Assembly (NCBI GenBank): GCA_018238545.1
Contig: JABCTC010000013.1
Span: forward strand, 1,719-65,718
Length of the DNA: 64,000 nucleotides
Source of the DNA: Candidatus Heimdallarchaeota archaeon
GTDB taxonomy: Archaea > Asgardarchaeota > Heimdallarchaeia > Heimdallarchaeales > Heimdallarchaeaceae
Direction: 5' to 3'
The first letter of the stretch is position 1, and every line of letters begins with the position of its first letter. Below the pieces are notes generated by a model. That model saw nothing but the letters and a program-made list of their open reading frames with translations, was not told the origin of the DNA and did not search any database. Below are positions 12,932 to 52,288 of the stretch, in pieces. A program made the position numbers and the translations under genes.

Positions 12932-13015
12932 TTTTATCCCTATGCTGACTCTATATTACTATGTTTTATTTCTTTTGCTTTTTCTTTAATAATAATGTTC
13001 ATCCAACGATTTTAT

Positions 13016-15014: not shown

Positions 15015-15090
15015 TTTTAGATACTAAAAATAATATGTTAATTAGAGTTTATAAATGATTTTCTGCCGGTTTGTCTTTATTTCAAATGAA

Positions 15091-16719: not shown

Positions 16720-16796
16720 TAATCACAACAATTTTCTCTCAACAAGTATTCCAATACATTGAAAATTAATAAGTTTAATGAATAAATAGGTTATCA

Positions 16797-17714: not shown

Positions 17715-17771
17715 TCCTTTTGAAAGGCATTTTGAGAATAATGCTTTGTTTACAAAAGGGAAAATATAATA

Positions 17772-18209: not shown

Positions 18210-18320
18210 AGAAAGTTTCTATCCTTCAATCATAAGACCACATGAGACTGAGATATGATTGTAAACTTATACCGGGTATTACACTTTGATGAAAGTGGAG
18301 ATAATTTACAAAAAGATTCA

Positions 18321-35949: not shown

Positions 35950-37758
35950 TTACAATCTATCAATTAATCCTTTAATAAATGTCATATATCTCATGAACAC
36001 AAATTCGGGGATGAACTTTGGTCTATTAAGATATTCGTTTATTCTTACTAATTCATCATAAAGATCTTTAAATCTTAAGGAAGGAATTTTTGTGCTTAAG
36101 TATTCAGCTATTTCTTCTGGTGACGACATTGATTGTCTTGACACTTTTCTTAAGCCCCTTACCATCGATCTATATAGAAGACCAACAGCTTCACTATAGG
36201 CACCTGAATCAACGATTCGCCGTATTTCTCTGTCAAACCTTGATGTCCCTTCTTCTCCTCTAACCTTAGTCCATAACACTGGAGACAATCTTGTTTTCTT
36301 TGGTATCAATGGATAAGCTATTACTGCAAACAGGATAGGTATAAAGGGCGAATAAAGTGGGAACATTGACATTTCTGTGATAAACTTCATTATTGCCATT
36401 GAATATACGGAAGCGCTGTAAAACTTCTGATGAGCATGGCCTTCATCAAAGATTATAGGGATAGCTGTTCCTGCTGTTAGATTCATATCGCTTCCTAAAT
36501 AATTAAACAAGTTCCTACTAAATATTAAATTATCATTTTCTTCTGGTTTGTCAATCCATTTGTTAATGAAAATATCAGGATCACCAATCATTACTATTTT
36601 ACCGCGACCAATTGGTAAAGTCATAATTGGAGCAAACATAACATTTCCCCATTCATCAGCATCTGGAAAGGCATTACCTTCTTTTGCTGATTGGAAATCA
36701 GATTCCATCCAAGCCGATCTCGATGTGTAGAACGGAAGGAAGGGGAGAAACATATCTTCTATTTCAAAACCAAATATTTCCAATGAAATAGCTTGTAGAG
36801 GCATCCAATCGGTTCTATAAACCTCTTCGCCACTTACATTTTCAGAGTGTCTGATAGCTAAACTCAAAACTGTTCCAAACTCCATTTGCAAACCTTTGGA
36901 TATACCATCAGTCAGAGGGTTTGATGTTTCCATATTTCTCAGAAGAGGTTGAGCAGGATTTGTTGTGTATGTTTCAGCATCCATTAGAACTGATCCATTA
37001 AAGGCAAAACCTTTCAGCATTCCCAACATACTAAAGATTAATGTCTCAGGACCTGCTGTTTGATTTTCTCCACCAAATCCAAACAAATCTAATAGAGAGG
37101 GTATTGATCCGTTACTTATTTCAGCTATATCATCCCAAGCATTAAGGAGAGAGAAGAATGGATCAAAAATCTGCGCTCCCGTACCAAAATCGTCAGCTAT
37201 GACCAAACTACCGCCCTTTGCTAGGAATGTAACCAAAGATATTGTATCTATGGTGTCGTAATTTGCTGCTGGACCAATAATTGCAACTATTCCAGGATCA
37301 GGATAACGGTTAAGTATTGCTAGAGATGACATACCATTTGAAATGTTATATCCTTCGTTTTCTAAGTTAACCCTTAAACTTGATAATCCATCCCAACCTT
37401 CATTATAGATGCTGAATTTTGTTCCATATCCAGCTAAACCAACGACTCCTAGTAAAATAGGCACCACTATAATCATAAAAAGTATGAACATTGCAATGGA
37501 GTATTTTGAGAAATTTCTAACGAATTCAGACATCAAGTATAAAATCAGAATTACTATAGTTACCACTATCATCATAGCTCCAATTTCTCGAGAAAATATG
37601 TAAGCTACGATTGTTCCTACAATAGCCAAGACTTCGGCAACTATGAAGAGAACTAATTTTTTTGGAGATATTTGTATGTTTATTCTCTTCTTCTTAGCCT
37701 CTGGACTTGATCTTCTTTCTCTTGACTTGTTTCTTTGTTTGTTGTCTTGCTGGCTCAA
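35950..37758 (-). CDS. DUF4350-like membrane protein (N-terminal TMs, extracytoplasmic domain, second TM)
   Basis: VAIIGPAANYDTIDTISLVTFLAKGGSLVIADDFG parallels the paralog 50211..51497 (LIIAGGSKNYRDSEILAIDGFILQGGLAVILAGSG). Same operon position. Confidence 0.5.
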   Translation of the reverse strand: MSQQDNKQRNKSRERRSSPEAKKKRINIQISPKKLVLFIVAEVLAIVGTIVAYIFSREIGAMMIVVTIVILILYLMSEFVRNFSKYSIAMFILFMIIVVPILLGVVGLAGYGTKFSIYNEGWDGLSSLRVNLENEGYNISNGMSSLAILNRYPDPGIVAIIGPAANYDTIDTISLVTFLAKGGSLVIADDFGTGAQIFDPFFSLLNAWDDIAEISNGSIPSLLDLFGFGGENQTAGPETLIFSMLGMLKGFAFNGSVLMDAETYTTNPAQPLLRNMETSNPLTDGISKGLQMEFGTVLSLAIRHSENVSGEEVYRTDWMPLQAISLEIFGFEIEDMFLPFLPFYTSRSAWMESDFQSAKEGNAFPDADEWGNVMFAPIMTLPIGRGKIVMIGDPDIFINKWIDKPEENDNLIFSRNLFNYLGSDMNLTAGTAIPIIFDEGHAHQKFYSASVYSMAIMKFITEMSMFPLYSPFIPILFAVIAYPLIPKKTRLSPVLWTKVRGEEGTSRFDREIRRIVDSGAYSEAVGLLYRSMVRGLRKVSRQSMSSPEEIAEYLSTKIPSLRFKDLYDELVRINEYLNRPKFIPEFVFMRYMTFIKGLIDRL

Positions 37759-38146
37759 CTAATTCTACACCTTGTTCTCTTATTCCACGGAAACATATAT
37801 CTAATCTCTGGATGGCTTCTTGATAGTCATCATATTGAATTTCCGTGTCAGTATATCTAGCAATTTCAAAGGATGTAAGATACTCGTCCATAACTTCTGT
37901 GGAGATGTTAGCTCTATTAGCAACTGAAAAACCAAATTCTCTTCCAGTTTCATATGGTGCACGGGACATATCTAGTAACCCGTGAGCAATGTTGGCTAAT
38001 CCTCCAAAGGAAGCTATAACGGCACCTTTGTAATCTTGTCTTTGCTCAAATATTCTTACATCTGCCATAACAGATGTAAACATCTGGTTTAATGATTTCA
38101 CTTGTTTTCTTTTCTTGAAGAACCCAAATATACCTCTATGACTCAA
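37694..38146 (-). CDS. small DUF4129-like cytoplasmic protein
   Basis: ...EIARYTDTEIQYDDYQEAIQRL resembles the DUF4129 xARY motif found in 51494..52288 and the tail of 38136..41813. Start may be internal (the ORF overlaps its neighbours). Confidence 0.4.
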   Translation of the reverse strand: MSHRGIFGFFKKRKQVKSLNQMFTSVMADVRIFEQRQDYKGAVIASFGGLANIAHGLLDMSRAPYETGREFGFSVANRANISTEVMDEYLTSFEIARYTDTEIQYDDYQEAIQRLDICFRGIREQGVELVEPARQQTKKQVKRKKIKSRG

Positions 38147-41100
38147 TTTTCATTTCACCTACTTCTATTTTATCTACTATTTTTAATAATGCACGTAATC
38201 CGGAATTGAAGTCATTTTCTGTAATTTCTTCATGTCCGTATCGTGCTTTTTCGAAATACGAGAGAAGTGTGTACATTATCTCTCGTTCAATTTTACCTTT
38301 TTCTGAAAGCAATCGCGAAAACTCCCAAGGAGTTTGACTCTTATATCTTGGTAAGTCGAAGAATTCTCGACCAATACCTTCTACCACTGTCCAAGTTTTT
38401 AGTAACCCTTCTTGATATCTTCCTTCCAATCCGTCTCTTTTAATATCTTCTATTATCTCTTTTAGATAATCACGTAATCGTCTTCTGAAAGTTTGTTTCT
38501 TTGCATAAGTTTGCAGAGAGTGTCTATTAAACCACAAGAAAAGAAGTGCTACAACTGCCACAATACCTCCTATAACACCTCCAATTATTGCTCCAATACT
38601 ACCTGTTATTCCCCCTGGCGGAGGAGCTGTAGGACTAGCATTGATAATAACTAAATTCACTGGAGTTGTGGATCTTGAATTTTCAACAGCATCCACTGCT
38701 TCAATATTATATTCCAAATTATAATTACCATAATCGGGTAGTTCTATATCTGAGAGATCAAATGTTGCTTCAAATACATCAGAGACTCCAACGCGGGTCA
38801 TAGTGATATCATAATCTACTTCATTGTAAGTAATATGTAATATCACCTCAGATACTGAAGTAAGAATATCTGTCACTGTTGCAGAGAATTCAAGTGTCGT
38901 ATCAGGGGTTATATATGAGATGTTTCCCGCTACAGCTACATTACTAATAGATGGTGCATCATTATCAACAGCTTGCACAGTCTGCATTGGACCCGTGAGA
39001 GAATTTTTTGTTGGTATTGCCGTATCATAGGCAATATAATACCACTCATAGTGGTAATTATACTGAAGCGTAAGTTGATAGAACCATTCATTGGTACTGG
39101 GAACATTTATCATCGAAGCCACTATATAATCGGTCTGATTTTCAAGTGTAACTAAATTGTGACTATTAACATGGAGTGTGACATTGTACATACCGCTCCA
39201 AACAATACTATCATTGATGAATACGGTAATGTTGATATACGGGGTTAGGGGGTTGCCAGAGGGGATAATAGTCGGCACTTGCTCCTCAAATGGTTCAACA
39301 AAATCTCCTAACTGGAATTCATTGGGAGAAGATTGTGAATATAATAAGCCTTCCCAACCAAAGTTAGCATCATAGTAAAGAGGAACAACAGTCTGTTTAG
39401 CACCGAATTCATCTAGTCCATGACCTGCGAAATCTATTATTTTAATATAATATAAGACATAATATTTTGATTCTGAAACTGTAGCATTGAGAATACCTCT
39501 GTACTGATCCCCACCAACATGCCATAGCGCAAAAGATTGCCACCCACCAATTGATGTGTTACCTACAGGTTCTAAATACTCAAAGAAAAACTCAACTGAT
39601 CTAATTCCTGTTCCAACATCAGTAACATAAATATCAAATTGAATATTGAAATATGGATCGTGAATTCCCGGATCGTAAGGATCAGGTGTTACAACCTCAC
39701 CTGTAACAATAGGTACGTTGTTATCTGGTCCATAAATATCTAGTGTATGAGTTATGGTAGTAGCTGGGGCATAATCACCACCAGAAGCTACTAACGACAG
39801 ACCTGGATATGCATGAGTGTCCTGAAGTATTGTTAGAAAATTAAGGGCAGTAAAATCAACCCAATTCTTCGTTGAAGTGATTAGGAGATTGGATGTTTCA
39901 ACATCGCCACCATTTGTAAGTGTAAGGAAAATATTAACCTTTTCTGGTAATCTTAACCATTGGTCAGTAACCGTCAGAGTATAATTGTGAGTTGCATCAA
40001 GAGCTCCCCAGAAAGTACTGTTAAATACAGTAGATGTTGTGCCATCTAAAATATTTGCTCCACTAGGATCTGTTAGAGTTAATATTAGTGCAAAATAAGT
40101 GTTGAACACAGAATTATTTAAAGCTCCAGCAGCAACAGCATAACGGTAATCTGCTCCTGAAACAGCTAGAGCTGTAACAGTTATTGTTTTTGTTTGTGTC
40201 TCATTAGTAGAATAATCTGGAATGACAGTTTCAATGTGTCTGGATCCTGTTGCAACAGAATAAGGTTGAACGATTGAATCAGGGAAGTTCAGTTGGAAAC
40301 TAGAAGATTGAGCAACATTGCTATATTCGTCATATAATGCAACGGTATAACCTATAGTATTCCCAGTTGTATAATATCTCACATTATCATCCAAATCCAG
40401 ATCAATTCTAGTTATATTAACTGCCAAATGTCCTTCTAAACTATCATGAGTTAAAGTTGATCCAACAAATTCATCTCCGTTAGGATCTATTAAGAAACTA
40501 AACAGTAACGCATCTGTTATGTCAGATATGTTGTTACCATCAAAGTAAAATGTGTCTTGAATCTCAGCAGTAGGATTAGATGTTACATAATCATTTGTAT
40601 AAATGGTCCCCTCACCTGCTCCAGAGATTGTTAATCTGATAGTTGAATCAGGTTCTAAGCCCGATTGTGAAGTTAGATTTGCATAAACTGTAACATATGT
40701 ACCTCCAATGATTTCAGTTGGTATGTTTATTTTACTTGGTCCCACTATGAAGTAAGCATCAACAACTACTTGATTCTCTGTAGCATCTACAATAATTTCA
40801 TGGATCAACCTATCATTTTGAATGTCACTAGTTCCTTCGTCTGCAAAGAAATTAAATCCTAGTTGACTAATATCATAATACGCTTCATATGTGACACCAT
40901 CAACTAAAACAGGGGCAGTATTTGTATACAGGTCTTGATTAGAGGCAAATGTTCTGTTAGTATCAATATGCGTGCCATCAGCGTCCCAGTTGACCTTAAG
41001 AGTGTATTCTGTTCCAGTTGGATCTATAACTGTATCATTATCAAATAAAATGCGAGTGTTAAATGAATAAGAGGCGCTTGGATTTGTAACATCAACAGTT

Positions 41101-41813
41101 ACATCTAATTTAATTTGACCGAAATAAAATACATTTACGTCTCCTGGGCTTCCGGCTCCTCTTCCCATACCTGGGTTACCATAAAACCAAGCAAGAAGGG
41201 TAATTTCTCCAATTTTAGAGAAGGGGTCTATAGAAAGAGCAGAAGTAGTTAATGCAATGGAAAATTGACCTAATGCATTAGTTGAAGCGCTTCCAACCTG
41301 ATATTGAGGTGTTTCATAGGTTGCAGGACTAGCAATAAATTGACTTTCAGTAACATTGTAGAAAAGCCAAACAGTTTCACCGTTCCAGTAATCTCCTACA
41401 ACAATACCTTGCAAAACACCCTCTACATTAATGAGAGTATCTCTAAAAATATACGCAGATGGTGTTGGAGATGTTATACTTTTCATTATAGTTGGCATGG
41501 TTTGAATTTCTGTGTCAACACCTTGAACAGTTAAATCACTGTTTTTAGGGGAATAAATTATTTTGTTTTCAGATTCAATTTCTGGTTGAACAGAATCTTC
41601 AGCAATGTCTGGAAAATACTCATACCTAGTTGGTGCATAAGTATTGTCAACAATAGTTTGTGACCCTTGCCCAAATATATAATTTGGAGAGTTAATCTCA
41701 CAATTTTGGTTGTCCAAAGTATTTTGTGTTTGAACTATAACCGCAGTAGACATCTGCATGATGAGTATTAGAAAGAAAATCATCCCTGTTAGTTTTGTTT
41801 TAATACTCTTCAT
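38136..41813 (-). CDS. giant (1225 aa) surface protein: signal peptide, large extracellular beta-rich region, single TM, cytoplasmic DUF4129-like tail
   Basis: N-terminal signal. TM GAIIGGVIGGIVAVVALLFLWF near the C-terminus, followed by ...LSYFEKARYGHEEITENDF (DUF4129-like). ATGA overlap with the upstream gene. Confidence 0.65.
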   Translation of the reverse strand: MKSIKTKLTGMIFFLILIMQMSTAVIVQTQNTLDNQNCEINSPNYIFGQGSQTIVDNTYAPTRYEYFPDIAEDSVQPEIESENKIIYSPKNSDLTVQGVDTEIQTMPTIMKSITSPTPSAYIFRDTLINVEGVLQGIVVGDYWNGETVWLFYNVTESQFIASPATYETPQYQVGSASTNALGQFSIALTTSALSIDPFSKIGEITLLAWFYGNPGMGRGAGSPGDVNVFYFGQIKLDVTVDVTNPSASYSFNTRILFDNDTVIDPTGTEYTLKVNWDADGTHIDTNRTFASNQDLYTNTAPVLVDGVTYEAYYDISQLGFNFFADEGTSDIQNDRLIHEIIVDATENQVVVDAYFIVGPSKINIPTEIIGGTYVTVYANLTSQSGLEPDSTIRLTISGAGEGTIYTNDYVTSNPTAEIQDTFYFDGNNISDITDALLFSFLIDPNGDEFVGSTLTHDSLEGHLAVNITRIDLDLDDNVRYYTTGNTIGYTVALYDEYSNVAQSSSFQLNFPDSIVQPYSVATGSRHIETVIPDYSTNETQTKTITVTALAVSGADYRYAVAAGALNNSVFNTYFALILTLTDPSGANILDGTTSTVFNSTFWGALDATHNYTLTVTDQWLRLPEKVNIFLTLTNGGDVETSNLLITSTKNWVDFTALNFLTILQDTHAYPGLSLVASGGDYAPATTITHTLDIYGPDNNVPIVTGEVVTPDPYDPGIHDPYFNIQFDIYVTDVGTGIRSVEFFFEYLEPVGNTSIGGWQSFALWHVGGDQYRGILNATVSESKYYVLYYIKIIDFAGHGLDEFGAKQTVVPLYYDANFGWEGLLYSQSSPNEFQLGDFVEPFEEQVPTIIPSGNPLTPYINITVFINDSIVWSGMYNVTLHVNSHNLVTLENQTDYIVASMINVPSTNEWFYQLTLQYNYHYEWYYIAYDTAIPTKNSLTGPMQTVQAVDNDAPSISNVAVAGNISYITPDTTLEFSATVTDILTSVSEVILHITYNEVDYDITMTRVGVSDVFEATFDLSDIELPDYGNYNLEYNIEAVDAVENSRSTTPVNLVIINASPTAPPPGGITGSIGAIIGGVIGGIVAVVALLFLWFNRHSLQTYAKKQTFRRRLRDYLKEIIEDIKRDGLEGRYQEGLLKTWTVVEGIGREFFDLPRYKSQTPWEFSRLLSEKGKIEREIMYTLLSYFEKARYGHEEITENDFNSGLRALLKIVDKIEVGEMKIES

Positions 41814-44800
41814 AGATAATATCGCTCCTTAATTGTAGCAAAATTGTGATTACACGTTTGAATAGTAATGTAAACTATTGACTGTAAGATTATTGATAAT
41901 GATAACATGTTCTCAATATTAGTTATACTAATTACCGAGAAACTAATGCTCATATGTATAGGATCACTGCGAATCTGATTCATAGCTACAGCAAAACTTG
42001 CTGGAGGAGTTGAAATGAAAACAGATGCAGATGCATTCCATCTATCTAAATAGAAAGTTAAGAAGACAAATGATCCCGCCCCATGGTTTCTAGCATCAAT
42101 TACTATTGTAGTATTAACAAAACCACTTGCATCTGTCACTCCATTATACATTATTTTGTTATATGGGATAGAAGCGTTCAAAGTAGATGCAAGCTCAGAT
42201 TTATAGGTTGCTACATCCTTAACACCTGTATATGCCTCATAATCTGATTCTTGTATGAACCATACTTCTATTGCTTCTCCATCTATTGCTGTTGGAGCAC
42301 CCAATGGAGGTTGCATGTAAAGAAAGAAATCAAAACCTTCCCACAAGAAATATCCATCGACACCCACATCAAGAAATGTATCATTTAACGTTGTATCAGA
42401 TCTTAGATAATCGATTAGTAACATAACTGAAAATGTATAATTCTGACCATAATTTGCAACTAAGTAGTACGTTGTATCTTCGGGTAAGGCAAAATAATCT
42501 GTTATTCCATCATTTGAATATACTGTTGATGTCCCACCACCATTGGTTAAGCCATCACCAATTTTAGTAACATCTTCAGGACCAATTATACCTAATTGCA
42601 ACTGTTGAAGCTCATCAGCCGTTAAAATATAATAAGACACATATCTTCCAGATAAGGGCGTTATTAACCCGGGTTCTGCGTAAAGAGTTGTGCTTAAAGA
42701 ATACGTGAACCCTCTTTGAGCAATATAATAATTATAAAATGTTCCAGGGTCTTCTGGACTCGGTAAGTATTGTGTTGTTGCATTCATCGAAACAGATGTC
42801 AAATACCCCTCAGGGAGAATTATGAACCCTGTACCATTCAAAGAAGTAAAACTAACATATGCAAAAACTATATACGTTGTACTATCCGGATCAGAAGGAT
42901 TAAACACTGGATATGCCGTGCTATTAAATGTTGGATATACTTCTGCTCTTCCAATCACATTTGTTGCTTCTTCTCCCAAATTATCAGCGATATCAAGAAG
43001 TTGGGCTGGATTGGATTGATAAGTTTGATAATCTGCAGAGGTCACCGCTTTGAAATTAACTATAGCTCCATCTACAGGAGAACCTTCACTTGAAATATCT
43101 GCTCTTACTACATATTGTAGATTATCTATAACATACACTTCATCGCTCCCCACAACTTGCGTTGGAAGATTATTGTATGTTGGATACTCATACATCGATA
43201 CATCTACATCATAAGAAGTATAGAGAGTATTTTCACAATAAACCAGATCACTTCCACTAGGATAGGGACCTACTTGAAATTGTCCCCAACGGTATACAGG
43301 GTCAATACCACCTTCATCTATAGGAAGGAGAGCTTCTATCCAACCATAAAGATTAGCAAATGTCAATGTTCTATTATTTGGGTCTCCACCATTTGGGCTA
43401 CCTATAGCAAATCCAAAAACAGGTCTTGCAGGGATTCCATTCAAACGCATAGCCATAACAGCTAAAGAAAGAAAAGCAGAGATTGAGAAATCTGTTCTTT
43501 CAGTAAGAAGTTGTGCTCTATCCCTACCCCCATTGTCAGTTTGGTCAGCTGTGGGTGTTCCATAATCAAGTAACATCTTGTCAATTATGTAAGCAGCACG
43601 TTCATAATATGTATGGCCTGCAGGAGTTGATACATCGTCGACATCATTTGCGAACTTTATAACACCAGAAGAAGTTGTGTCATAATTTGTAGGAATTTGG
43701 AGAAATCTTTGAACCGCTGTATCAGTAGCGTAACCGGGAACATAAGCATCTGTACAATCATTAATTATTGTTTGAGTATCATCTTGAACAAAATAAGTTG
43801 AATAGTGATATGTACCAACATAACCTAATATTTCAGCTGCAGATTGTAGTAATAATTGATCTCTTAGTGTATAAACAATATCTGTTGAACCATCCACTGC
43901 TACATTTGTACCGTTTTCATCAAATAGGTAATCATCCCAATCTGTGCTGGAACTTCCTGTATCAAGAGAATATTCACTAAGATGAGGATAATTATATGAA
44001 CTCCAAGTTGTAAGTAATGGAGTGGTAACTGTTGTAGTAGCGGAATAGGCTAATTGCTTGATATCCATACCAATCGCCGTGGGACCTGGTGGTCCATAAT
44101 CCGAACCATCTTGGAGGGCATTAGTTACAGCGTCGTTTGAGATGAATTCCCACGTTGTAGAATCGTAATAATCGTGAACCTCCCACCTATAAAGGAAATC
44201 ACCTAAATCACCATTCGAACCATCCGTAAAAACTTCCGCCATCTCTTGATTAGCGAAACTATCATTGAAATCTAGAGCATCTAAAAGATCCAGTAAACCA
44301 TCAATGTAAAAGGGAGCAGAACCTTGGAAATTCGCATTGAACCAATCAGGATCAATAAGTTGTTCATCAATAACTCCTGGAGGTAAGTCACGATATTTAT
44401 CTAACATGCTCAGATAAGGACCCATGAATGACATCAAGAGAATATAAATTGTAAAACCTGTAAAGAGAATCCTCCAGACATTATGTCTAGAATGCCATTT
44501 AAAAAGTACAAATGGCCAAGATATTATGGGGAGGAGTATATACAAAAAGAGTGCAGCAATAATTCGCAAAGCTGTAGGTTTGAATTCAACCCTATAAGTT
44601 TCAAACGCTGTTAGCAATAAAAATATGTTTACTCCAATCGCTATATAAAACAGAGTTGATGTTACAAAGGTAGGTAATCCTGCAATCTGTAAATCACTAA
44701 AAATAAATGTCATTACGATTGTAGCTACTAATGATGCACCAAAAATAATTGTAAAAACAATATTTACTGGTTTGATCTTTTTTTCTGCCATCATTTCTGT

Positions 44801-44917
44801 AGCAAACTTACCTTGCTTTTTCTTTAGTTTTCTCTGCTTGGGGACAACGGCAGCTCGTGTCTTCAGTTTACTACCACTCTTTAGTTGCTTAACTTTTGTT
44901 GATTTTTTCTCAGACAT
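41810..44917 (-). CDS. transglutaminase-like (DUF3488-type) membrane protein, probable pseudo-enzyme
   Basis: Basic N-terminus + ~6 TM. Core region TDFSISAFLSLAVMAMRLNGIPARPVFGF...NLYGWIEALLP aligns with TGase GxCxxFAxxxxxLLRxxGIPAR...GHAWVEVYLP, but with Cys->Ser and His->Tyr. Confidence 0.6.
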   Translation of the reverse strand: MSEKKSTKVKQLKSGSKLKTRAAVVPKQRKLKKKQGKFATEMMAEKKIKPVNIVFTIIFGASLVATIVMTFIFSDLQIAGLPTFVTSTLFYIAIGVNIFLLLTAFETYRVEFKPTALRIIAALFLYILLPIISWPFVLFKWHSRHNVWRILFTGFTIYILLMSFMGPYLSMLDKYRDLPPGVIDEQLIDPDWFNANFQGSAPFYIDGLLDLLDALDFNDSFANQEMAEVFTDGSNGDLGDFLYRWEVHDYYDSTTWEFISNDAVTNALQDGSDYGPPGPTAIGMDIKQLAYSATTTVTTPLLTTWSSYNYPHLSEYSLDTGSSSTDWDDYLFDENGTNVAVDGSTDIVYTLRDQLLLQSAAEILGYVGTYHYSTYFVQDDTQTIINDCTDAYVPGYATDTAVQRFLQIPTNYDTTSSGVIKFANDVDDVSTPAGHTYYERAAYIIDKMLLDYGTPTADQTDNGGRDRAQLLTERTDFSISAFLSLAVMAMRLNGIPARPVFGFAIGSPNGGDPNNRTLTFANLYGWIEALLPIDEGGIDPVYRWGQFQVGPYPSGSDLVYCENTLYTSYDVDVSMYEYPTYNNLPTQVVGSDEVYVIDNLQYVVRADISSEGSPVDGAIVNFKAVTSADYQTYQSNPAQLLDIADNLGEEATNVIGRAEVYPTFNSTAYPVFNPSDPDSTTYIVFAYVSFTSLNGTGFIILPEGYLTSVSMNATTQYLPSPEDPGTFYNYYIAQRGFTYSLSTTLYAEPGLITPLSGRYVSYYILTADELQQLQLGIIGPEDVTKIGDGLTNGGGTSTVYSNDGITDYFALPEDTTYYLVANYGQNYTFSVMLLIDYLRSDTTLNDTFLDVGVDGYFLWEGFDFFLYMQPPLGAPTAIDGEAIEVWFIQESDYEAYTGVKDVATYKSELASTLNASIPYNKIMYNGVTDASGFVNTTIVIDARNHGAGSFVFLTFYLDRWNASASVFISTPPASFAVAMNQIRSDPIHMSISFSVISITNIENMLSLSIILQSIVYITIQTCNHNFATIKERYYL

Positions 44918-45242: not shown

Positions 45243-47030
45243 GTGATCATCATCCAAGTTAAATTAATTTCTTACCCTGAAGAAGCAGAGTTAATAGCAA
45301 AAATGGCCGGGTTAATATGCTATTCCGGCGAGAAGGTTTTCGAAGAGATAAAGGATAAAGCTGCCCTTAAAACTGATGAGTATCTTGAAGCAATAATAAA
45401 ATCTGGTCACTTATCAATATTAGAACACAATGTTTTTGTTTTCTATGTTACAGGAATAAGTAGAGCTTGCTACGATAAGAAAACGGAAGTATATACTAAG
45501 GATGGGTGGAAGTTCTTTGAGAATCTAAAGAAAGAAGATTTGTTTCTGACACGTGATATAAATGGATCTGTCGAGTTTCAAAGTGCAGAAAGATTCATTA
45601 AATACAAGTATCATGGAAAAATGCATCATTACACATCACAAAATTTCGATTTGGTTGTTACACCAGATCACAATCTACTCTTAAGGAGATACGAACTCAA
45701 AAAAGGTGAGAATAGAGAGTTTAAGCTACAAAAATCAAATGATTTTCCACAGCAGAGAATGACTATGGACAAAAGGATTCGTCATACTGTAGAAATGGAT
45801 GATTATTTTATAGTTAAGGGATACAACTATGTCAGAAAAAACAAAATAGGTAAGGATTATACAGTATCGACCCCAGATTTAATGCTAAAACGAAAGTACT
45901 TCATGCAGTTTTTAGCTTGGTATTTATCCGAAGGTAGCTTATATTACAATCCTAAAGAGAACAGTTACCGTATCGTAATATCCCAATCATCCGCAAAAAA
46001 GTCGAATCGTAAAGAAATTGAGGATGTAATTAGGAAATTAGGTTGTACTCCAACTATTTTACAAAATCAAATTGCTTTTAAAAATCAGACACTTGGAAAA
46101 TTTCTGAAGGTTCTAGGAAAAAGTTTTGAGAAATATATTCCTTTGAATTTGTTCGAAGAATTCAATGATAAATATGCAAAACTATTTTTGGAAACTTATG
46201 TTAAAGGGGATGGTACAAAAGAAAAAAATGGACATATGCGTATATATACAACTTCAACGAAGCTTGCGAATCAGATTCAAATCTTATGTTTCATAGCAGG
46301 GTATACGGGTAGCATCTGGATTGACGATAGAATAGGATTAAAAAGGACTATTGGGAAAATTCACTTTGAAAATAAGAGAATATGTTATATCGTTTCTATA
46401 TCCAAAGGAAAAAGAAATCGAACGCCTGTACTAAAGATGAACAAGCATTTCTCTGAAGTTTCCTATAATGATTATGTGTACTGTGTAGAAGTTCCTAAAT
46501 TTAACACATTATTTGTAAGAAGGAATGGATTAGCTATTTGGTGTGGTAATTGTTCTCATCAATTGGTAAGAAAGAGAATAGCTAGTTTTTCACAGCAATC
46601 ACAGAGATATGTTAATGCGGAAAATTTTGAATATATCATTCCAGACGAAATCAATAAGTCAACTTTTGGAGAAAGATATAAGGAAATTGTAAATCAAACT
46701 CATGAACTTTATCAAGAGATGGTTAACAATGGCGTTCCAAAAGAGGACGCGAGATACATTTTACCTAATGCAACTTCCACCCAGCTAATAGTTTCTATGA
46801 ATGGTCATTCACTAATTGATTTACTAGTAAGAAGGATTTGTGAAAGAAGCCAGTGGGAGATTCGTGAGTTAGCGGAGAGGATGTTAGAGGAAGTAAAAAA
46901 GGTTGCTCCAGCAATCTTCAAAAATCTTGGTGCATTTTGTGATTTCTATGGGTATTGCCCAGAAAATAGTCATTCGTGCGGAAGAATGCCTACAATAGAT
47001 GAATTAAAAGAAAAAGCTTCTCTTAAATAG
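45243..47030 (+). CDS. thyX: flavin-dependent thymidylate synthase ThyX, interrupted by an intein (GTG start)
   Basis: Exteins: LICYSGE, HLSILEHNVFVFYVTGISRA | CSHQLVRKRIASFSQQSQRY (ThyX RHR/SxxxSxR signature). Spliced product ~234 aa. Confidence 0.85.
   Translation: MIIIQVKLISYPEEAELIAKMAGLICYSGEKVFEEIKDKAALKTDEYLEAIIKSGHLSILEHNVFVFYVTGISRACYDKKTEVYTKDGWKFFENLKKEDLFLTRDINGSVEFQSAERFIKYKYHGKMHHYTSQNFDLVVTPDHNLLLRRYELKKGENREFKLQKSNDFPQQRMTMDKRIRHTVEMDDYFIVKGYNYVRKNKIGKDYTVSTPDLMLKRKYFMQFLAWYLSEGSLYYNPKENSYRIVISQSSAKKSNRKEIEDVIRKLGCTPTILQNQIAFKNQTLGKFLKVLGKSFEKYIPLNLFEEFNDKYAKLFLETYVKGDGTKEKNGHMRIYTTSTKLANQIQILCFIAGYTGSIWIDDRIGLKRTIGKIHFENKRICYIVSISKGKRNRTPVLKMNKHFSEVSYNDYVYCVEVPKFNTLFVRRNGLAIWCGNCSHQLVRKRIASFSQQSQRYVNAENFEYIIPDEINKSTFGERYKEIVNQTHELYQEMVNNGVPKEDARYILPNATSTQLIVSMNGHSLIDLLVRRICERSQWEIRELAERMLEEVKKVAPAIFKNLGAFCDFYGYCPENSHSCGRMPTIDELKEKASLK
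45468..46550 (+). mobile_element. intein (361 aa) with LAGLIDADG homing-endonuclease domain inside thyX
   Basis: Begins CYDKKTEVYTKDGW (Cys1, block A), ends ...NGLAIWCGN, followed by +1 Cys. Two LAGLIDADG-like motifs (FLAWYLSEGS, FLETYVKGDGT). Insertion splits the conserved ThyX SRA|xSHxLVR site. Confidence 0.75.
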
Positions 47031-47035: not shown

Positions 47036-47869
47036 TCAACTGATGTTTTCGATGCCATCTTCAGTTGCTTCTGTATCAGAGTTTTTCTCTTGTTGTCGAT
47101 TATCTTGTGTATCCACATCCACAATCTTAGGTAGAATTGCGTTGGTTCTAATTAATAAAACAGAATATATTATGGCTACTAAGATCAAAGAAGGACGAAT
47201 TATATATTCAGCTAAGGAATCTTCAGGGATGAGATAAAAGATCATTAAAGCATAAAGGGCAGCAAGGGCAGCGAAAATAATCAATAGCATAAAGGGCCAC
47301 AACATCCTTCTAAATAATACAATCCATTTTTGCAATGTTTTTATTCCTTCAGGAGATATGTATTCAAAATCAGTTTTTATCAAATTGTCCTTATATTGCT
47401 GCACTTGTTCTCTTGTATACTTACTCCTTGTTTTTACAAATGGATGGTCTTGTTCTAAGTATTCCATATAATAAAATGTAGACAGAAAACGTAGACCTAT
47501 ACATAATCCTGCTAAGGATTGATATATTATGATATCAACTCTACCCAGAGTAGCGGGGAAAAACATTGAGTTTGGGTTAGCTAAAAGAAGAGATAATATT
47601 GTACCAAATATGAAGAAAAGTCCAAAAGTAACTTCAGAGGACAATTTCATTTGAGTTCCTTTGAAAAAATCTGTCATTAATATTACTACACCAAGAACCA
47701 ACCAAATTGCGAAGATGTAGATATTCAAACTAAAAGCTGATTGGATAATAATTAAACTGACAGCTAAAGCTCCGAAGAGATGATGGGCACCTGCGATGAA
47801 AGTGGAGCCTAGAGCTGTCAAAGAAGTTAGTTCCCAATCTTCTTCAAATACTTTATCTCTTATTCTCAT
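47036..47869 (-). CDS. polytopic membrane protein (last gene of operon B; SpoIIM/DUF95-like candidate)
   Basis: 6-7 TM helices. 4-nt overlap with the upstream DUF58 gene. Confidence 0.5.
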   Translation of the reverse strand: MRIRDKVFEEDWELTSLTALGSTFIAGAHHLFGALAVSLIIIQSAFSLNIYIFAIWLVLGVVILMTDFFKGTQMKLSSEVTFGLFFIFGTILSLLLANPNSMFFPATLGRVDIIIYQSLAGLCIGLRFLSTFYYMEYLEQDHPFVKTRSKYTREQVQQYKDNLIKTDFEYISPEGIKTLQKWIVLFRRMLWPFMLLIIFAALAALYALMIFYLIPEDSLAEYIIRPSLILVAIIYSVLLIRTNAILPKIVDVDTQDNRQQEKNSDTEATEDGIENIS

Positions 47870-49248
47870 GATGCTCGCCTCATTGCTTCTTGAACCAGTC
47901 TCTGTGTTGGAGAATATTTTTTCATTAATCTGAATAATGATAGGATGATATTATCGTCATATCCAAATACATCCACATAATCTCCACGAATTGAATACAG
48001 GAGTTGACGTAATTCAATTTCCCTCTTTCTATATTCATCACTCACAATACTTGGAAAAACATCTTGTAATATTTCTCCATAATTCATATCTTCTGTCCTA
48101 TCCAACATCCAATCTTGTGAGGATAAGATATTGAAATGCATGGTAGCAAAATTAACAAAAATCACCCTACTCCCCATGGTTTGGAGAAGATGTATGCCTT
48201 GCAGTTTTTTTACTAAATCTCCTTCTAAATCCGAAAATATTATAGCGATAGAATGCAAAACATTATTGTTTTTGGTAAATTTAACAGCGTTAAGGAAACT
48301 ACTATGAACACCAGTAGCTTCAATATCATATAGGTTGAGCATAAGTCTTAGCTCATGTTTTCCTACTTGTGGTATTATGTATTTTTGCACATTTTCGGAA
48401 TAAGCAACCACGGCCAAATCATGATTGGTGCCTTTAATCAGCGAACATAATTCTACTACTGAAGATAACGCGTACTCGAACTTGGGTCCAAACATTGTAC
48501 TGCTAAGATCCAGATAAATCAAGAAGTGCAAGTTTCTTTGGTCTTCAAATTCTCTTGAAATCAATTTATCATGTCTCGCAGTTGCATACCAATCAATATG
48601 TTTTAGTTGATCTCCGGGTAAATAATCTCGAAGCGCAAAAAATTCATCACCTCGTCCCTTTACTCTTTGAGCAAATTCATGAACCATTTTCAACAATAGT
48701 TCTTTCTTTGTCTTCCATGGAATATTAATACGCGGCCTCTGTGGCAGTATCTTGATTTGTTGTGTATCTTTCAGTATTCGCTTATGTTTGAAGAGATACT
48801 GGAATGAACCAACGGAAATTTCAATAGGACCAATTTCTCCATTTCCTCTTCTAGAGGCAAGCAATAACCAAACAATTTTCGTCTTCTTTTGTGGAAGTAA
48901 TTTGATTAGTATTGTCTCTGGTTTGTCTATACTCTTAAAATGGAATGAAAAACGAAGACTAATTTTCGTGAGAATTGTTCTTCTAGATGGGTTTGTCAAT
49001 TCAACTGCTACAGCTAATAAACCTCTACTTCTCATAAAATCCTTTGAACAACTCATTTTTGTATTGAAAGAATAAGTATGTGAAAATATGAAAGAAATAA
49101 AAGTGGAAGTAATAACTACTAAGAATAAAACACCAGGAACTATAAGAAGTAAAGTATCTATTGCTAAGCCTATTATCACAAATAGACTACCGAATAGAAT
49201 GAAAATTTTACCATTCTTTGTAAGTTCAAAGTGTCTTTCTTCTTCCAT
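47866..49248 (-). CDS. DUF58 (vWA-like) protein with N-terminal TM hairpin
   Basis: RVKGRGDEFFALRDYLPGDQLKHIDWYATARHDKLISREFEDQRNLHFLIYLDLSSTM. Confidence 0.65.
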   Translation of the reverse strand: MEEERHFELTKNGKIFILFGSLFVIIGLAIDTLLLIVPGVLFLVVITSTFISFIFSHTYSFNTKMSCSKDFMRSRGLLAVAVELTNPSRRTILTKISLRFSFHFKSIDKPETILIKLLPQKKTKIVWLLLASRRGNGEIGPIEISVGSFQYLFKHKRILKDTQQIKILPQRPRINIPWKTKKELLLKMVHEFAQRVKGRGDEFFALRDYLPGDQLKHIDWYATARHDKLISREFEDQRNLHFLIYLDLSSTMFGPKFEYALSSVVELCSLIKGTNHDLAVVAYSENVQKYIIPQVGKHELRLMLNLYDIEATGVHSSFLNAVKFTKNNNVLHSIAIIFSDLEGDLVKKLQGIHLLQTMGSRVIFVNFATMHFNILSSQDWMLDRTEDMNYGEILQDVFPSIVSDEYRKREIELRQLLYSIRGDYVDVFGYDDNIILSLFRLMKKYSPTQRLVQEAMRRAS

Positions 49249-49269
49249 TTGAAATCTCTGCCTTTTGTT

Positions 49270-50214
49270 TCATATCACAACTTCTACATCTGAAAGAATA
49301 TTTTCAATAATCTCAGAAATTCGGATTTGTTCGATTTCTGCCTCTGGAGAGAGCATCAATCTATGGTTCATAACAGGATAGAATATAGATTTGATATCAT
49401 CAGGTTCAACAAAATCTCTCCCCCTAATTGCAGCAATAGACCGACTCAAAGTAAGTAAAGCTATTGAACCCCTTGGACTTGCTCCAAGTGCTAAGGAAGG
49501 AATCGAACGTGTTGCAATTACTAGTTTTGCAATATACTCAAGAATCTGGTTACTTACAGTTACGTTTTTCTCAATTTCTGTTATTAATTTGAGAATGGTT
49601 TTTTGATCAGTAACTATCTCAATATCTGCAAACATCTTTTCTCTCTTTTTAACAAGCATCTCAACTTCTCCATTAAGAGAAGGAGGATAAACAGGAATCT
49701 TAACTAAAAATCTATCAATCTGAGCTTCTGGAAGAGGATAGACTCCTGTACTTTCGATTGGGTTCTGAGTTGCTATAACCATAAATGGTTCCGGAAGCTT
49801 GAACGTTTGATTACCTGAAGAAACTTGTTTCTCCTGCATTGCTTCTAACAAAGCTGATTGTGTTTTGGGTGGCGCTCTGTTTATTTCATCTGTAAGTAGT
49901 ATACTGGTGAAAACTGGTCCTTCAATGAATCTAAAGGAACTTGTTTCTCTTTCGTATATGTTACCTCCTGTGATATCAGCTGGCATCAAATCGCTTGTAA
50001 ACTGAATTCTTTTGAAACCCATTTTGATAACTTCAGCTAAAGTACTAGCCATCAATGTTTTTGCTATTCCCGGGACACCTTCTAGCAGAACGTGTCCTTC
50101 ACTTAGAAGAGAAGCAAACATCAGTTCGATAACATTTTCATTACCCACTATTCGTTTTTTCATTTGTTCCATTATTTTTTCAAAAATATCTTTTGCTTCT
50201 TGCACTTTTGTCAT
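49270..50214 (-). CDS. MoxR-family AAA+ ATPase (paralog)
   Basis: LLEGVPGIAKT, ILLTDEINRAPPKTQSALLEAMQEKQVS, DRFLVK. Confidence 0.85.
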   Translation of the reverse strand: MTKVQEAKDIFEKIMEQMKKRIVGNENVIELMFASLLSEGHVLLEGVPGIAKTLMASTLAEVIKMGFKRIQFTSDLMPADITGGNIYERETSSFRFIEGPVFTSILLTDEINRAPPKTQSALLEAMQEKQVSSGNQTFKLPEPFMVIATQNPIESTGVYPLPEAQIDRFLVKIPVYPPSLNGEVEMLVKKREKMFADIEIVTDQKTILKLITEIEKNVTVSNQILEYIAKLVIATRSIPSLALGASPRGSIALLTLSRSIAAIRGRDFVEPDDIKSIFYPVMNHRLMLSPEAEIEQIRISEIIENILSDVEVVI

Positions 50215-51497
50215 TTAAATCGTCCTCTTTTTTGTATCTCTTCAAGCATTTTGAAGAGTGAAAGGAAAGTTTTTTGATCTAATTTCCTTTTAAACGCTAT
50301 TTCGAATAACTCTTTTTCCTCCTCTGTGAATTTCTCCAATTGAATATAACTTGCCTTTTTTGTAAGATAATACTGATACGCTTTCTTAGGATAAAGCTCA
50401 TACTGGAAATACAAGTTTGATAGAAACTGTTCTTCAATCGTTGGTTTTATTGGAGATCCATAAGTATCGTACAACTCCCTCTCCCTTGACCAGATCCTAT
50501 CTGATAAAAATTTCTTATAAGTTTCCTTTGGTTTGAATGTTTCTCTAAATCTTGGAGTGAAATAATATAATGTTAAAACAACCAAAACAAGTAAGAAAAT
50601 AAAGACTTGTGTTTTTGATAACAGAATTATTGTTCCATAAGATTGGTTAATCATCCCCTCAGTTGTTGAAAAGGGCCATCTTTTATGACTTTCCTCAAAA
50701 CAGACAAGTCTTTCTTCTCCTGAAGAATAATACCCAATAAGATAGAGTGCGAGATTAATATTCCCAAAACCTTGACTATAAAGATCGTTAGTTAGAAAAC
50801 TTGGAGAAGAAATAACAATAACGAATCCAAGCCCTCTTTTGAGAACTGTACCTACTTGCAAACTTGCTGTAGGTTCAGAATCAATATTCCAAATACCATC
50901 TTGGCTCTCGTCTAGAAATGCGGTGCTATAGGTACTTATCCCAAGGAGTTCTGTCTGTGTTGAACTCTCTGCTATAAAAGACAGTTCTCTAGCTTCTATC
51001 ATGCATAGGCTAGTGTTTGTTTCAATTGGTGAATTTAACATTATTATTTCTGGTGTTTTATAATAATAGGTTGTTTCTAATATGGTTGAACTAGAAAGAA
51101 AAACTCCGAAGTGTTTTGCTAGAATATTGGTAGGACCAGAGCCAGCCAATATTACTGCTAAACCCCCCTGTAAAATAAAACCATCTATTGCTAATATTTC
51201 TGAATCCCGATAGTTCTTTGAGCCCCCAGCTATAATAAGAGTTGATGATTTTGGAAGTTTAATAATAGGGTCTGTTGATAATATCGTTCTTGTAGTATTG
51301 TAACCAGATTCAAGAAGTAAACTATTGAAATATGACATTCCACCAGGTCCTGTATTGTTTATAGAATATGGAGGTTGTCCGCTTGTGATGTTGATACTAA
51401 GGGGGAGAATGATTACTAAGAATATTAGTAAGGTTTGGATAAGCATTTTGAACAATGGAGAATATTTCTTTGAAAATATAACAGGTGTAAGCTTCAT
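50211..51497 (-). CDS. DUF4350-like membrane protein (paralog of 35950..37758)
   Basis: Same TM-ectodomain-TM-cytoplasmic-tail architecture. Shared motif block with the operon A copy. Confidence 0.5.
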   Translation of the reverse strand: MKLTPVIFSKKYSPLFKMLIQTLLIFLVIILPLSINITSGQPPYSINNTGPGGMSYFNSLLLESGYNTTRTILSTDPIIKLPKSSTLIIAGGSKNYRDSEILAIDGFILQGGLAVILAGSGPTNILAKHFGVFLSSSTILETTYYYKTPEIIMLNSPIETNTSLCMIEARELSFIAESSTQTELLGISTYSTAFLDESQDGIWNIDSEPTASLQVGTVLKRGLGFVIVISSPSFLTNDLYSQGFGNINLALYLIGYYSSGEERLVCFEESHKRWPFSTTEGMINQSYGTIILLSKTQVFIFLLVLVVLTLYYFTPRFRETFKPKETYKKFLSDRIWSRERELYDTYGSPIKPTIEEQFLSNLYFQYELYPKKAYQYYLTKKASYIQLEKFTEEEKELFEIAFKRKLDQKTFLSLFKMLEEIQKRGRFK

Positions 51498-52288
51498 TGT
51501 TCATCTTCCTCGCTAATTCGTTGAATAATTTCGATATCTGTTTGAGCCGCACTCAAACCTTTTACTGCTTCAAGATCTCTGATGAAATCCAACAAATCTT
51601 TCCTTTTCATCTGTTGTTTTTTATATCTTGCAACATAGAAAGTTTGTATCATTGAATTTAAGTAGGGAAGAATATTTGGCAAATCAAGTGACTTTGCAAA
51701 TTCCTTGGGTGTAAGGTAAGTTTCTCTGCTTATCCCTAGAATTTTCTTCATGTTCTCATCAAGTTGATGATAACCGAAAATTATACCTTCCGTATATTTT
51801 CCTTCTCTCAAATATTCTCTAAGTACTTCCGTAAGTGTTCTTATTTGTGTTCTGAATTTTTCTCTTCGAGATTGAAGTGTACTTCCTGTAACAATGGATC
51901 TAGGCGCAGACCTAGTTTCCTCAGTCTTTCTTCTAAGAAATAGAAAAACGATTATGAGTACTATAATTACTGCAACAGTTATGGGAATAACTTGAGCGGG
52001 GACAAGTCCCTCACTTCCACCTTGTGGATTATTGGGTGGAACAGTAGGAGTATTAGTTGGATATGGGGGAGTAGAGGGGTCAGTTGTAAGAGGGTCTGTT
52101 GTGGGGGCAGGAGGAGAGAAAGAAGTGGTAGAAAGCGTACTTATAGAATAATCATCGATACCGTAGTATGTTTCTTGAGTACTGTTTACTAAGATAAATA
52201 TTAGTATACAAGCGAGAATTATAAACAACCTAATATTAATAAATTTCTTGAAATCAATCTTCACTTGTATCACCTTTTTGAACTTCAT
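51494..52288 (-). CDS. DUF4129-like protein with N-terminal TM and Pro/Thr-rich linker
   Basis: TM, then PPAPTTDPLTTDPSTPPYPTNTPTVPPNNP linker, second TM, C-terminal ...IQTFYVARYKKQQMKRKDLLDFIRDLE. Confidence 0.5.
   Translation of the reverse strand: MKFKKVIQVKIDFKKFINIRLFIILACILIFILVNSTQETYYGIDDYSISTLSTTSFSPPAPTTDPLTTDPSTPPYPTNTPTVPPNNPQGGSEGLVPAQVIPITVAVIIVLIIVFLFLRRKTEETRSAPRSIVTGSTLQSRREKFRTQIRTLTEVLREYLREGKYTEGIIFGYHQLDENMKKILGISRETYLTPKEFAKSLDLPNILPYLNSMIQTFYVARYKKQQMKRKDLLDFIRDLEAVKGLSAAQTDIEIIQRISEEDEQ

Follow-up and report, generated by a model that had tools for sequence, protein, structure and literature searches.

The gene at 41810-44917 on the minus strand of the window, the 64,000-nucleotide stretch of a Candidatus Heimdallarchaeota genome analysed here (contig JABCTC010000013.1), encodes a membrane protein with a genuine transglutaminase-like (TGL) core in which all three residues of the Cys-His-Asp catalytic triad have been replaced. 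The open reading frame (ORF) list and the translation show these coordinates to be exactly one complete reading frame of 1035 codons, giving a 1035-residue protein. A sequence-only reading of this DNA had proposed a TGL protein that lost its Cys and His and serves in a MoxR operon as a binding or scaffolding pseudo-enzyme, pointing to the GIPAR-containing segment RTDFSISAFLSLAVMAMRLNGIPARPVFGF (residues 474-503, window 43409-43498, minus strand) and to a LYGWIE sequence beyond it (residues 523-528, window 43334-43351, minus strand). We consider it fairly probable that the protein is a surface-exposed pseudo-enzyme related to TgpA, forming the binding or scaffold part of an envelope complex serviced by a MoxR ATPase and its von Willebrand factor A (vWA) partner.

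The similarity to the transglutaminase fold goes beyond chance. The single sequence passes the Pfam gathering cutoff for Transglut_core (PF01841) with 23.9 bits against 23, over aa 436-528. Far stronger agreement came from profiles: 37 homologues (35-92% identity) were aligned and the core cut out as a separate profile, 15 canonical Cys-His-Asp TGL domains were taken from the matches of a profile run against 1.8 billion representative proteins, and hhalign matched the family core to this canonical set with a probability of 99.5% (E 1.3e-22, 136 columns). The family profile search of the 1.8 billion proteins, which returned 106 proteins at E <= 1e-3, also recovers canonical proteins with the TgpA_N, Transglut_core and DUF4129 combination. 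The AlphaFold2 (AF2) model of the full-length protein has a mean predicted local distance difference test score (pLDDT) of 73, and 80-90 over residues 220-970; its top Foldseek match in the Protein Data Bank (PDB) is the TgpA periplasmic domain (6g49, E 1.1e-9, TMt 0.65, 341 columns), TMt being the TM-score normalised on TgpA. When the core was modelled by itself (pLDDT 80, pTM 0.78; TMq 0.52 to TgpA), 50 of the 50 top Foldseek matches were structures of the transglutaminase superfamily, including TgpA, TG2, TG3, factor XIII, the Cytophaga TGL protease 3isr, TglA, PeiP and the pseudo-enzyme protein 4.2. Profile alignment and structure search therefore both bear out the earlier assignment of the GIPAR segment to a TGL core, and show that the motif is not a spurious similarity.

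Searches against PDB sequences were much less informative, as single-sequence phmmer with the whole protein found nothing even at E <= 10 and the family-core profile gave marginal matches only (TgpA, E 0.15; a fish transglutaminase, 0.4). The protein has no Pfam match to TgpA_N (PF11992) at E <= 0.1, whereas its relatives P0108, P0121 and P0094 do; despite this, its beta-sandwich and core superpose structurally on the TgpA periplasmic domain in the Foldseek alignment. No NCBIfam model matched the TGL protein. One further resemblance, of residues ~540-563 (window ~43229-43300, minus strand; RWGQFQIGPYPxGxDLIYCEN) to the loop of plant Kunitz-type trypsin inhibitors (4j2k, 8hnr), was found at E 0.13-0.15 and is regarded as probably due to chance.

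The three catalytic positions of the core are occupied as follows:

43481-43483, minus strand: codon of Ile479, at the catalytic Cys position (hhalign, TgpA alignment, 15-residue spacing, start of a helix in the model).
43346-43348, minus strand: codon of Tyr524, at the catalytic His position (TgpA alignment, hhalign, family columns).
43274-43276, minus strand: codon of Gln548, at the catalytic Asp position (hhalign, family columns).

In the hhalign alignment DFS-I-SAF lies opposite EGH-C-EYF, so that Ile479 takes the nucleophile column with Ser478 and Ser480 as its flanks; ANLYGWIE lies opposite RDAHAWVE, turning HxW into YGW; and WGQFQVGP lies opposite WMSFDPTP, turning FDPT into FQVG. The Cys and His columns come out at these positions in a separate profile alignment to TgpA, too. 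In all 31 of the 31 canonical domains examined the Cys stands 15 residues before the G of GIPAR, a spacing which, with G494 as reference, leads here to I479. In the AF2 model I479 opens the helix 479-492, and Y524 and Q548 lie on the consecutive strands 523-533 and 541-548, positions that conform to the geometry expected of a papain-like triad. The sequence-only reading was thus right that both Cys and His are gone, and right to read the His replacement from LYGWIE, but it placed a Ser in the nucleophile column, one residue away from the Ile that occupies it. It had named only Cys and His, and the replacement of the Asp by Gln548 is an addition to it.

These losses are shared by the whole family. 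When orthologues were inspected for the same substitutions, the triad was missing from all 37 aligned homologues. Column 479 holds I, L, V, F, A or S and is among the least conserved positions of the core, set between highly conserved columns; column 524 is Y or F throughout; and column 548 is an invariant Gln within the invariant W544-G545-Q546-x-Q548. Neither neighbouring serine is invariant, the Ser478 column holding S, A, T or P and the Ser480 column S, T or P. What remains conserved in the region of the former cleft is R491, GIPARP, W526, E528 and WGQFQ, together with N563, which is invariant across groups A to C of the relatives classified below. E528 is no new residue, hhalign aligning it with the ordinary Glu of the canonical HAWVE motif. 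Since Cys-His-Asp has become Ile479, Tyr524 and Gln548, the protein should be incapable of thiol-dependent transamidation, deamidation or proteolysis, activity itself being judged here from the lost triad.

Nor does a conserved Cys/His/Asp triad occur elsewhere in the domain. Across the ectodomain the 37-homologue alignment shows not one conserved His. Cys is conserved at a single site of the otherwise Cys-free, probably extracellular region of 815 residues, Cys561 (in YCEN; window 43235-43237, minus strand), which is kept in at least 90% of the family and replaced by Gly in P0010 and the sister clades (YGRN/FGxN). A triad relocated within the domain is ruled out on these grounds. A serine nucleophile is likewise ruled out in this protein, as the column itself is Ile479, Ser478 and Ser480 vary, and a partner His or Asp is missing.

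The gene is under purifying selection. Compared with five orthologues (Nei-Gojobori), the ratio of nonsynonymous to synonymous substitution (dN/dS) lies at 0.13-0.20 for the gene as a whole and at 0.09-0.19 when only the TGL core is counted; the latter range and the intact orthologues rule out a pseudogene or relaxed selection. We found 38 full-length or partial homologues, the best of them 92% identical, and the protein matches that carry names are titled Heimdallarchaeaceae, Heimdallarchaeota or 'Asgard group'. A collection holding one genome per species yielded 24 distinct loci with full-length ORFs, nearly all titled Heimdallarchaeota, among them AB_125 and the complete genomes of Ca. Heimdallarchaeum aukensis and endolithica, with one titled Thorarchaeota. 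Some members of the family have been automatically annotated as 'transglutaminase domain-containing protein'. We take the encoded protein to derive from the membrane-anchored TGL proteins of the TgpA/YebA type, in a form specific to Heimdallarchaeaceae.

The TGL gene is the first of seven minus-strand genes arranged head-to-tail, which overlap or are spaced by no more than 33 nt:

41810-44917, minus strand: gene 1, TgpA-like membrane protein with the catalytically dead TGL core (ORF list, translation, homologues, dN/dS).
38136-41813, minus strand: gene 2, 1225-aa protein with a C-terminal DUF4129 (Pfam E 6.5e-7).
37694-38146, minus strand: gene 3, 150-aa soluble DUF4129-like protein (Pfam DUF4129 E 0.0017, below the cutoff).
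35950-37758, minus strand: gene 4, 602-aa DUF4350 membrane protein of the arCOG01314 type with a GldG/GIFT-like flavodoxin-fold ectodomain (Pfam DUF4350 E 1.5e-12; weak IFT52_GIFT match; type after PMC5898192).
34903-35916, minus strand: gene 5, MoxR-family AAA+ ATPase (Pfam AAA_3 E 1.3e-65, AAA_lid_2).
33420-34874, minus strand: gene 6, DUF58/vWA protein with two N-terminal transmembrane (TM) helices (Pfam DUF58 E 7.8e-35, VWA_2 E 1.6e-10).
31889-33412, minus strand: gene 7, 507-aa polytopic membrane protein (ORF).

The earlier placing of the TGL gene in a MoxR operon is therefore confirmed, with MoxR and DUF58/vWA downstream of it and with synteny down to 35% identity. The translations show MoxR to have an intact Walker A (GVPGIAKT) and Walker B (LLADE), and the DUF58/vWA protein to have an intact metal ion-dependent adhesion site (MIDAS) motif, DSSVS; the latter also shows a weak DUF11 match over an N-terminal beta-sandwich. 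The 1225-aa protein has a signal peptide, an ectodomain of ~1040 aa that is poor in Lys, rich in Thr and Asn and without a Pfam match, a single Gly-rich TM helix and its DUF4129 in the cytoplasm. Its start shares 4 nt (ATGA) with the stop of the TGL gene, and the pairing of the two genes recurs at loci of relatives, overlapping in L001 and L028 and abutting in L003. Pfam places DUF4129 on the two genes downstream of the TGL polypeptide, which itself has none. No family in Pfam or NCBIfam was found for the 507-aa protein, and library scans of the operon proteins revealed no kinase, phosphatase, FHA or other output domain.

At the loci of relatives the gene order persists at 35-41% identity. A gene of 149-165 aa is kept at the gene-3 position in L001, L003 and L028, and one of 503-535 aa at the gene-7 position in L001-L003. 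The conserved synteny is wider than the operon, and comprises a PrsW-led MoxR operon, ThyX on the opposite strand, the TGL-led MoxR operon and an EF-2-family gene.

The TGL protein itself is built from seven parts:

44771-44917, minus strand: residues 1-49, a Lys-rich tail (18 K/R) that is predicted to be disordered and presumably lies in the cytoplasm (composition; pLDDT <50).
44411-44770, minus strand: residues 50-169, four hydrophobic helices forming a membrane anchor (hydropathy; AF2 helices 50-71, 83-109, 116-141 and 147-169).
44255-44344, minus strand: residues 192-221, WFNANFQGSAPFYIDGLLDLLDALDFNDSF, an acidic amphipathic linker that follows the last N-terminal TM helix (conservation scan).
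43778-44254, minus strand: residues 222-380, a beta-sandwich ahead of the TGL core, as in the TgpA periplasmic domain (AF2 strands with pLDDT ~80-88; Foldseek 6g49).
43223-43714, minus strand: residues 402-565, the TGL core, with a helical lid and a papain-like core (Pfam, hhalign, AF2, Foldseek).
42008-43210, minus strand: residues 570-970, about four beta-sandwich domains, immunoglobulin (Ig)- or macroglobulin-like and absent from TgpA (AF2 all-beta, pLDDT 80-90).
41816-41926, minus strand: residues 998-1034, a C-terminal helix and possible second membrane anchor (AF2 helix; hydropathy peak 1001-1022).

Conservation is distributed unevenly along this architecture. Outside the TGL core the top-conserved 30-residue stretch of the whole protein is the acidic linker 192-221, which includes GSAPFYIDGLLDLLDALDF and has a low pLDDT; it may be a partner-binding motif, and supplied the family signature P[FV][YD]ID[GS]LLD. 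In the N-terminal tail M1, S2, L18, K19, T20, A23, V24 and V25 are conserved in the family, and the TM loop K140-R149 is nearly invariant, with K140, R144 and R149 fully so. The C-terminal helix 998-1034 has the lowest conservation in the protein. The beta-sandwich array of residues 570-970 matches, in Foldseek, the macroglobulin-domain arrays of alpha-2-macroglobulin, complement proteins and TEP1.

The region 171-985 contains 1.1% Lys and has a net charge of -79, a composition nearly identical to that of the ectodomain of the gene-2 neighbour (1.3% Lys, net charge -97) and unlike that of the cytoplasmic proteins and domains of the window, which have 7-10% Lys. The number of N-terminal TM segments differs among relatives, with three in P0026, P0045, P0047 and P0058 and one in P0079 and P0096. 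In TgpA the corresponding domain is periplasmic, as supported by protease shaving (PMC3507681). We infer that the TGL ectodomain is extracellular because it shares the Lys-poor composition of the signal-peptide-bearing neighbour, because its TgpA homologue is periplasmic and because relatives have one or three TM segments, although the even count of four helices in this protein conflicts with an outside ectodomain.

In the pseudo-enzyme model that we favour, the large, acidic, Lys-poor region would face the outside of the cell, and the former active-site cleft, lined by R491, GIPARP, W526, E528 and WGQFQ, would bind a peptide or envelope ligand without turnover. The most plausible ligand would come from the 1225-aa surface protein, translationally coupled to the TGL gene, in the form of one of its segments. 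The TGL protein could then serve as scaffold or adaptor of a surface complex that also contains the 1225-aa, DUF4350 and DUF4129 proteins, while on the cytoplasmic side MoxR and its vWA/MIDAS partner might use ATP to drive assembly, remodelling or quality control of the complex. Precedent exists in the inactive TGL domains of Rad4, Cyk3 and CC2D2A, which have been proposed as peptide-binding modules (PMC3495828). The pseudo-enzyme status suggested earlier is upheld, as the triad is lost while fold and gene are kept, and the binding or scaffolding role suggested with it would be a reasonable extension from such precedent and from the purifying selection. As a partner or client for the dead TGL protein, the 1225-aa protein would be the first candidate.

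Several points weigh against this model. Taken literally, four N-terminal TM helices behind a K/R-rich tail, as given by hydropathy and AF2, would leave the large domain in the cytoplasm. The conserved cleft residues are largely structural in active TGLs too, and are no proof of a ligand site. The triad was mapped by sequence and profile alignment and by position in the secondary structure, and the scaffold role would be drawn from analogy and gene order. Finally, locus L028, of group C below, has the first four genes as in the window operon with no adjacent MoxR or DUF58; not every lineage therefore needs the coupling to MoxR.

The first of these points leads to a different arrangement, in which the large domain is cytoplasmic and acts as a non-catalytic substrate adaptor, passing proteins to MoxR/vWA at the inner face of the membrane. 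Besides the four predicted helices and the tail with its 18 K/R, this would conform to the view of Zhang and Aravind that YebA-like TGL domains are cytoplasmic and work with MoxR as the unfoldase (PMC3495828). We think it very unlikely, given that the 1.1% Lys and net charge of -79 resemble the ectodomain of the signal-peptide-bearing neighbour and no cytoplasmic protein or domain in the window, that the TgpA domain is periplasmic (PMC3507681), and that relatives with one or three TM segments would place the domain outside. A ligand-sensing head, signalling through the membrane to DUF4129, DUF58 and MoxR as in the actinobacterial Esr or PFNA clusters, is another unlikely alternative. In Actinobacteria the combination of MoxR-vWA, an Ig-repeat surface protein and a transglutaminase gene has experimental support as a threat-sensing system (bioRxiv 10.64898/2026.09.08.750141), the PFNA cluster is similar (PMC8430577), and the window protein does have a conserved cytoplasmic tail and TM loop. 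Yet kinase, phosphatase, FHA and other output domains are all missing from its operon, and the transglutaminase of the Esr pathway is itself proposed to be an active anchoring enzyme and not the sensor. PADLOC gave no significant defence-system match for the TGL, MoxR or DUF58 proteins, and the ectodomain is under purifying (dN/dS ~0.1-0.2), not diversifying, selection.

It could also be argued that the protein is still an enzyme, one that uses a non-canonical chemistry with Ser478/Ser480 or Cys561 as nucleophile, aided by Glu528, Tyr524 or Gln546/Gln548. The cleft is indeed among the top-conserved regions, with W544-G545-Q546-x-Q548, E528 and N563 invariant, and C561 is at least 90% conserved in an ectodomain otherwise free of Cys. 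Moreover TGLs with Ser for Cys that keep the His and Asp occur in other Asgard lineages, and for such Ser-for-Cys variants an activity as serine peptidases has been put forward (PMC3495828). This reading is nonetheless decidedly improbable, since Ser478 and Ser480 are variable and lie outside the nucleophile column, no His is conserved in the ectodomain, C561 gives way to Gly in P0010 and the sister clades, and E528 belongs to the ordinary HAWVE. To the remaining view, that the gene is a decaying relic or the GIPAR match fortuitous, we give almost no credence. The Pfam score does lie merely 0.9 bits over the cutoff and phmmer against PDB sequences was empty, but the hhalign match (99.5%, E 1e-22) and the agreement of Foldseek speak against a chance match, and dN/dS of 0.09-0.19 and intact ORFs of ~1000 aa with conserved synteny, at loci across 24 genomes, against decay.

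The relatives place the loss of the triad in a wider series. The 106 proteins of the profile search were classified by the residues in the Cys, His and Asp columns, with taxonomy taken from source names and carried by few clusters:

Group B: V/P, F/S, Gln; two proteins of ~940-1060 aa; mean core identity to the window family 37%.
Group C (P0045-P0069): I/M/L, mostly His, Asn (SWGIFNPI); ~1000-1100 aa, with the architecture of the window protein; mean core identity 33.5%.
Group D (P0073-P0129): Ser, His, Asp; names Hodarchaeales, Hermodarchaeota and Baldrarchaeia; mean core identity 29%.
Group E, canonical: Cys, His, Asp; TgpA_N, Transglut_core and DUF4129; mean core identity 30%.

Groups B and C are the nearest to the window family, and core identity does not separate D from E (29% against 30%). 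The Cys-His-Asp state is that of the bacterial TgpA-type proteins. The names in group C comprise two of Kariarchaeaceae and Heimdallarchaeota, with one protein labelled Methanobacteriota. DUF4129 is fused to the TGL domain in P0108, P0119, P0121 and P0096, which are TgpA-type and Baldrarchaeial relatives. A reasonable reading of this series is that the active site was eroded stepwise within the Asgard archaea. The Asgard variants with Ser-His-Asp and with hydrophobic-His-Asn appear to be undescribed.

At the group C locus L028, in another Heimdallarchaeota MAG, the module (10001-19717) comprises the TGL gene (1111 aa), two DUF4129 genes coding for 1349 and 165 aa, and the gene of a 592-aa protein. 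The place of MoxR/DUF58 after it is taken by a GT2 glycosyltransferase and an AMP-binding enzyme, and ~2 kb upstream there is the gene of an Arf/Ras-family small GTPase.

The closest known counterpart of the window protein is TgpA (PA2873) of Pseudomonas aeruginosa, described by Milani et al. 2012 (PMC3507681), with the YebA type to which it belongs. They have in common the polytopic N-terminal anchor, the beta-sandwich and the TGL core (TMt 0.65 to 6G49), an operon shared with a MoxR AAA+ ATPase and a DUF58/vWA protein, and a link to DUF4129. They differ in that TgpA has an intact Cys-His-Asp triad and transglutaminase activity in vitro (PMC3507681), in contrast to the Ile-Tyr-Gln found here, and in that the window protein has no TgpA_N match, has DUF4129 on adjoining genes instead of at its C-terminus and carries the extra Ig-like array of ~400 aa. 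The window operon moreover adds the 1225-aa surface protein and the DUF4350 protein to what is found around TgpA, and its TGL protein is archaeal and restricted to Heimdallarchaeaceae. For YebA-type MoxR-vWA-TGL operons the leading proposal is a membrane-proximal degradation system with the TGL protein as its peptidase (Zhang and Aravind 2012, PMC3495828). The dead triad speaks against the TGL subunit being that peptidase, at any rate in this lineage.

The operon also resembles the archaeal arCOG01314 (DUF4350)-MoxR-vWA-Ig neighbourhood, with which it shares a DUF4350 membrane protein, MoxR, a vWA protein with an N-terminal beta-sandwich, and large Ig-like membrane-anchored proteins. The account of this neighbourhood given by Makarova, Galperin and Koonin 2015 (PMC5898192) predicts a secretion or membrane-remodelling complex; unlike the components which that account lists, among them no transglutaminase-like one, the dead TGL protein and DUF4129 are integral and syntenic here. 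The operon thus merges two published predictions, the MoxR-vWA-YebA/TGL degradation system (PMC3495828) and the arCOG01314-MoxR-vWA-Ig complex (PMC5898192).

With the Esr pathway (bioRxiv 10.64898/2026.09.08.750141) and the bifidobacterial PFNA cluster (PMC8430577) it has in common a cluster of MoxR, vWA/DUF58, an Ig/FN3-repeat surface protein and a TGL membrane protein. Those clusters include a Ser/Thr kinase, a phosphatase and FHA, whereas the window operon has no kinase or FHA genes; and the EsrD transglutaminase is proposed to be active, linking the surface protein to the envelope, whereas the TGL protein here is dead and the surface protein has a TM anchor of its own. Like the inactive transglutaminase-fold proteins protein 4.2, Rad4/XPC, Cyk3, CC2D2A/MKS6 and CEP76, the window protein keeps the fold with its catalytic residues substituted, and in those proteins the fold is used for binding or scaffolding (PMC3495828). 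They are, however, cytoplasmic or nuclear, and the window protein is membrane-anchored, probably extracellular, archaeal and encoded in a MoxR operon. No specific relationship to the inactive eukaryotic proteins was found beyond the shared fold, the closest relatives being prokaryotic TgpA-like proteins. With fold kept, triad lost and gene under selection, the window protein is a pseudo-transglutaminase, a term that denotes a functional class and not a clade.

Just across the ThyX gene lies a paralogous second MoxR operon (47036-54959, minus strand), in a tandem arrangement that is kept in L001 and L003:

53259-54959, minus strand: PrsW-family intramembrane protease with a double zinc ribbon and EExxK and HxxxN motifs (translation).
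After PrsW, minus strand: 334-aa TM protein.
51494-52288, minus strand: DUF4129-like protein.
50211-51497, minus strand: DUF4350 protein.
49270-50214, minus strand: MoxR.
47866-49248, minus strand: DUF58 protein.
Within 47036-54959, minus strand: 277-aa TM protein, the last gene of this operon.

Its lead position is held by an apparently active membrane protease, where the first operon has the dead TGL protein. The ThyX (Thy1) gene between the two operons (45243-47030, plus strand) encodes 595 aa, and its Thy1 match is split around a LAGLIDADG/intein-like insert. The syntenic ThyX proteins of L001, L002 and L003 are only 230-236 aa long, and the window copy therefore carries an intein of ~360 aa that these relatives lack. 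Directly downstream of the TGL operon, on the opposite strand, is a gene for a 741-aa EF-2/EF-G-family GTPase (29572-31797, plus strand), which has syntenic counterparts in L001 and L002.

Pseudo-transglutaminases and MoxR-vWA-TGL operons are already known. What is new is a TgpA-like protein that lacks the triad entirely throughout a lineage and is kept in a MoxR operon, together with its fusion to an Ig-domain array, the splitting of DUF4129 onto adjoining genes and the graded active-site states across Asgard lineages. A full-text literature search found no paper on Heimdallarchaeal transglutaminase-like proteins.

A much bolder interpretation would see in the Heimdall operon a surviving prokaryotic version of the module that supplied eukaryotic ciliary and transport machinery, with its associations of dynein, IFT52 and CC2D2A. 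The operon brings together MoxR, a vWA partner, a GIFT-like DUF4350 domain and an inactive TGL domain tethered to the membrane, in the archaeal lineage closest to eukaryotes. MoxR is a proposed ancestor of the AAA+ domains of dynein and midasin, the GIFT-like fold is that of IFT52, and CC2D2A/MKS6 of the ciliary transition zone has an inactive TGL domain. We regard this as highly improbable. If it were true, catalytic loss and the switch to pure binding would already have taken place on the archaeal side, by steps from Cys-His-Asp to Ser-His-Asp (Hod-, Hermod- and Baldrarchaeia), to the absence of a nucleophile with His-Asn (other Heimdall lineages) and to Ile-Tyr-Gln (Heimdallarchaeaceae). 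Apart from that interpretation, the graded Asgard series offers a compact example of how a pseudo-enzyme evolves, among the archaea most closely related to eukaryotes; in eukaryotes inactive TGL domains were later put to use as ciliary adaptors.

Operons of the MoxR-vWA-TGL kind occur very commonly among prokaryotes, and TgpA is essential in P. aeruginosa. On the metagenome-assembled proteins studied here the label 'transglutaminase domain-containing protein' should not be taken as the assignment of an enzyme. The Heimdallarchaeaceae protein offers a natural 'catalytic-dead' control for TgpA-like proteins, including that of P. aeruginosa. That a whole lineage has retained the operon, under purifying selection, although its TGL protein is not a thiol enzyme, indicates a role of the TGL subunit that is at least partly non-catalytic, in binding, anchoring or scaffolding.

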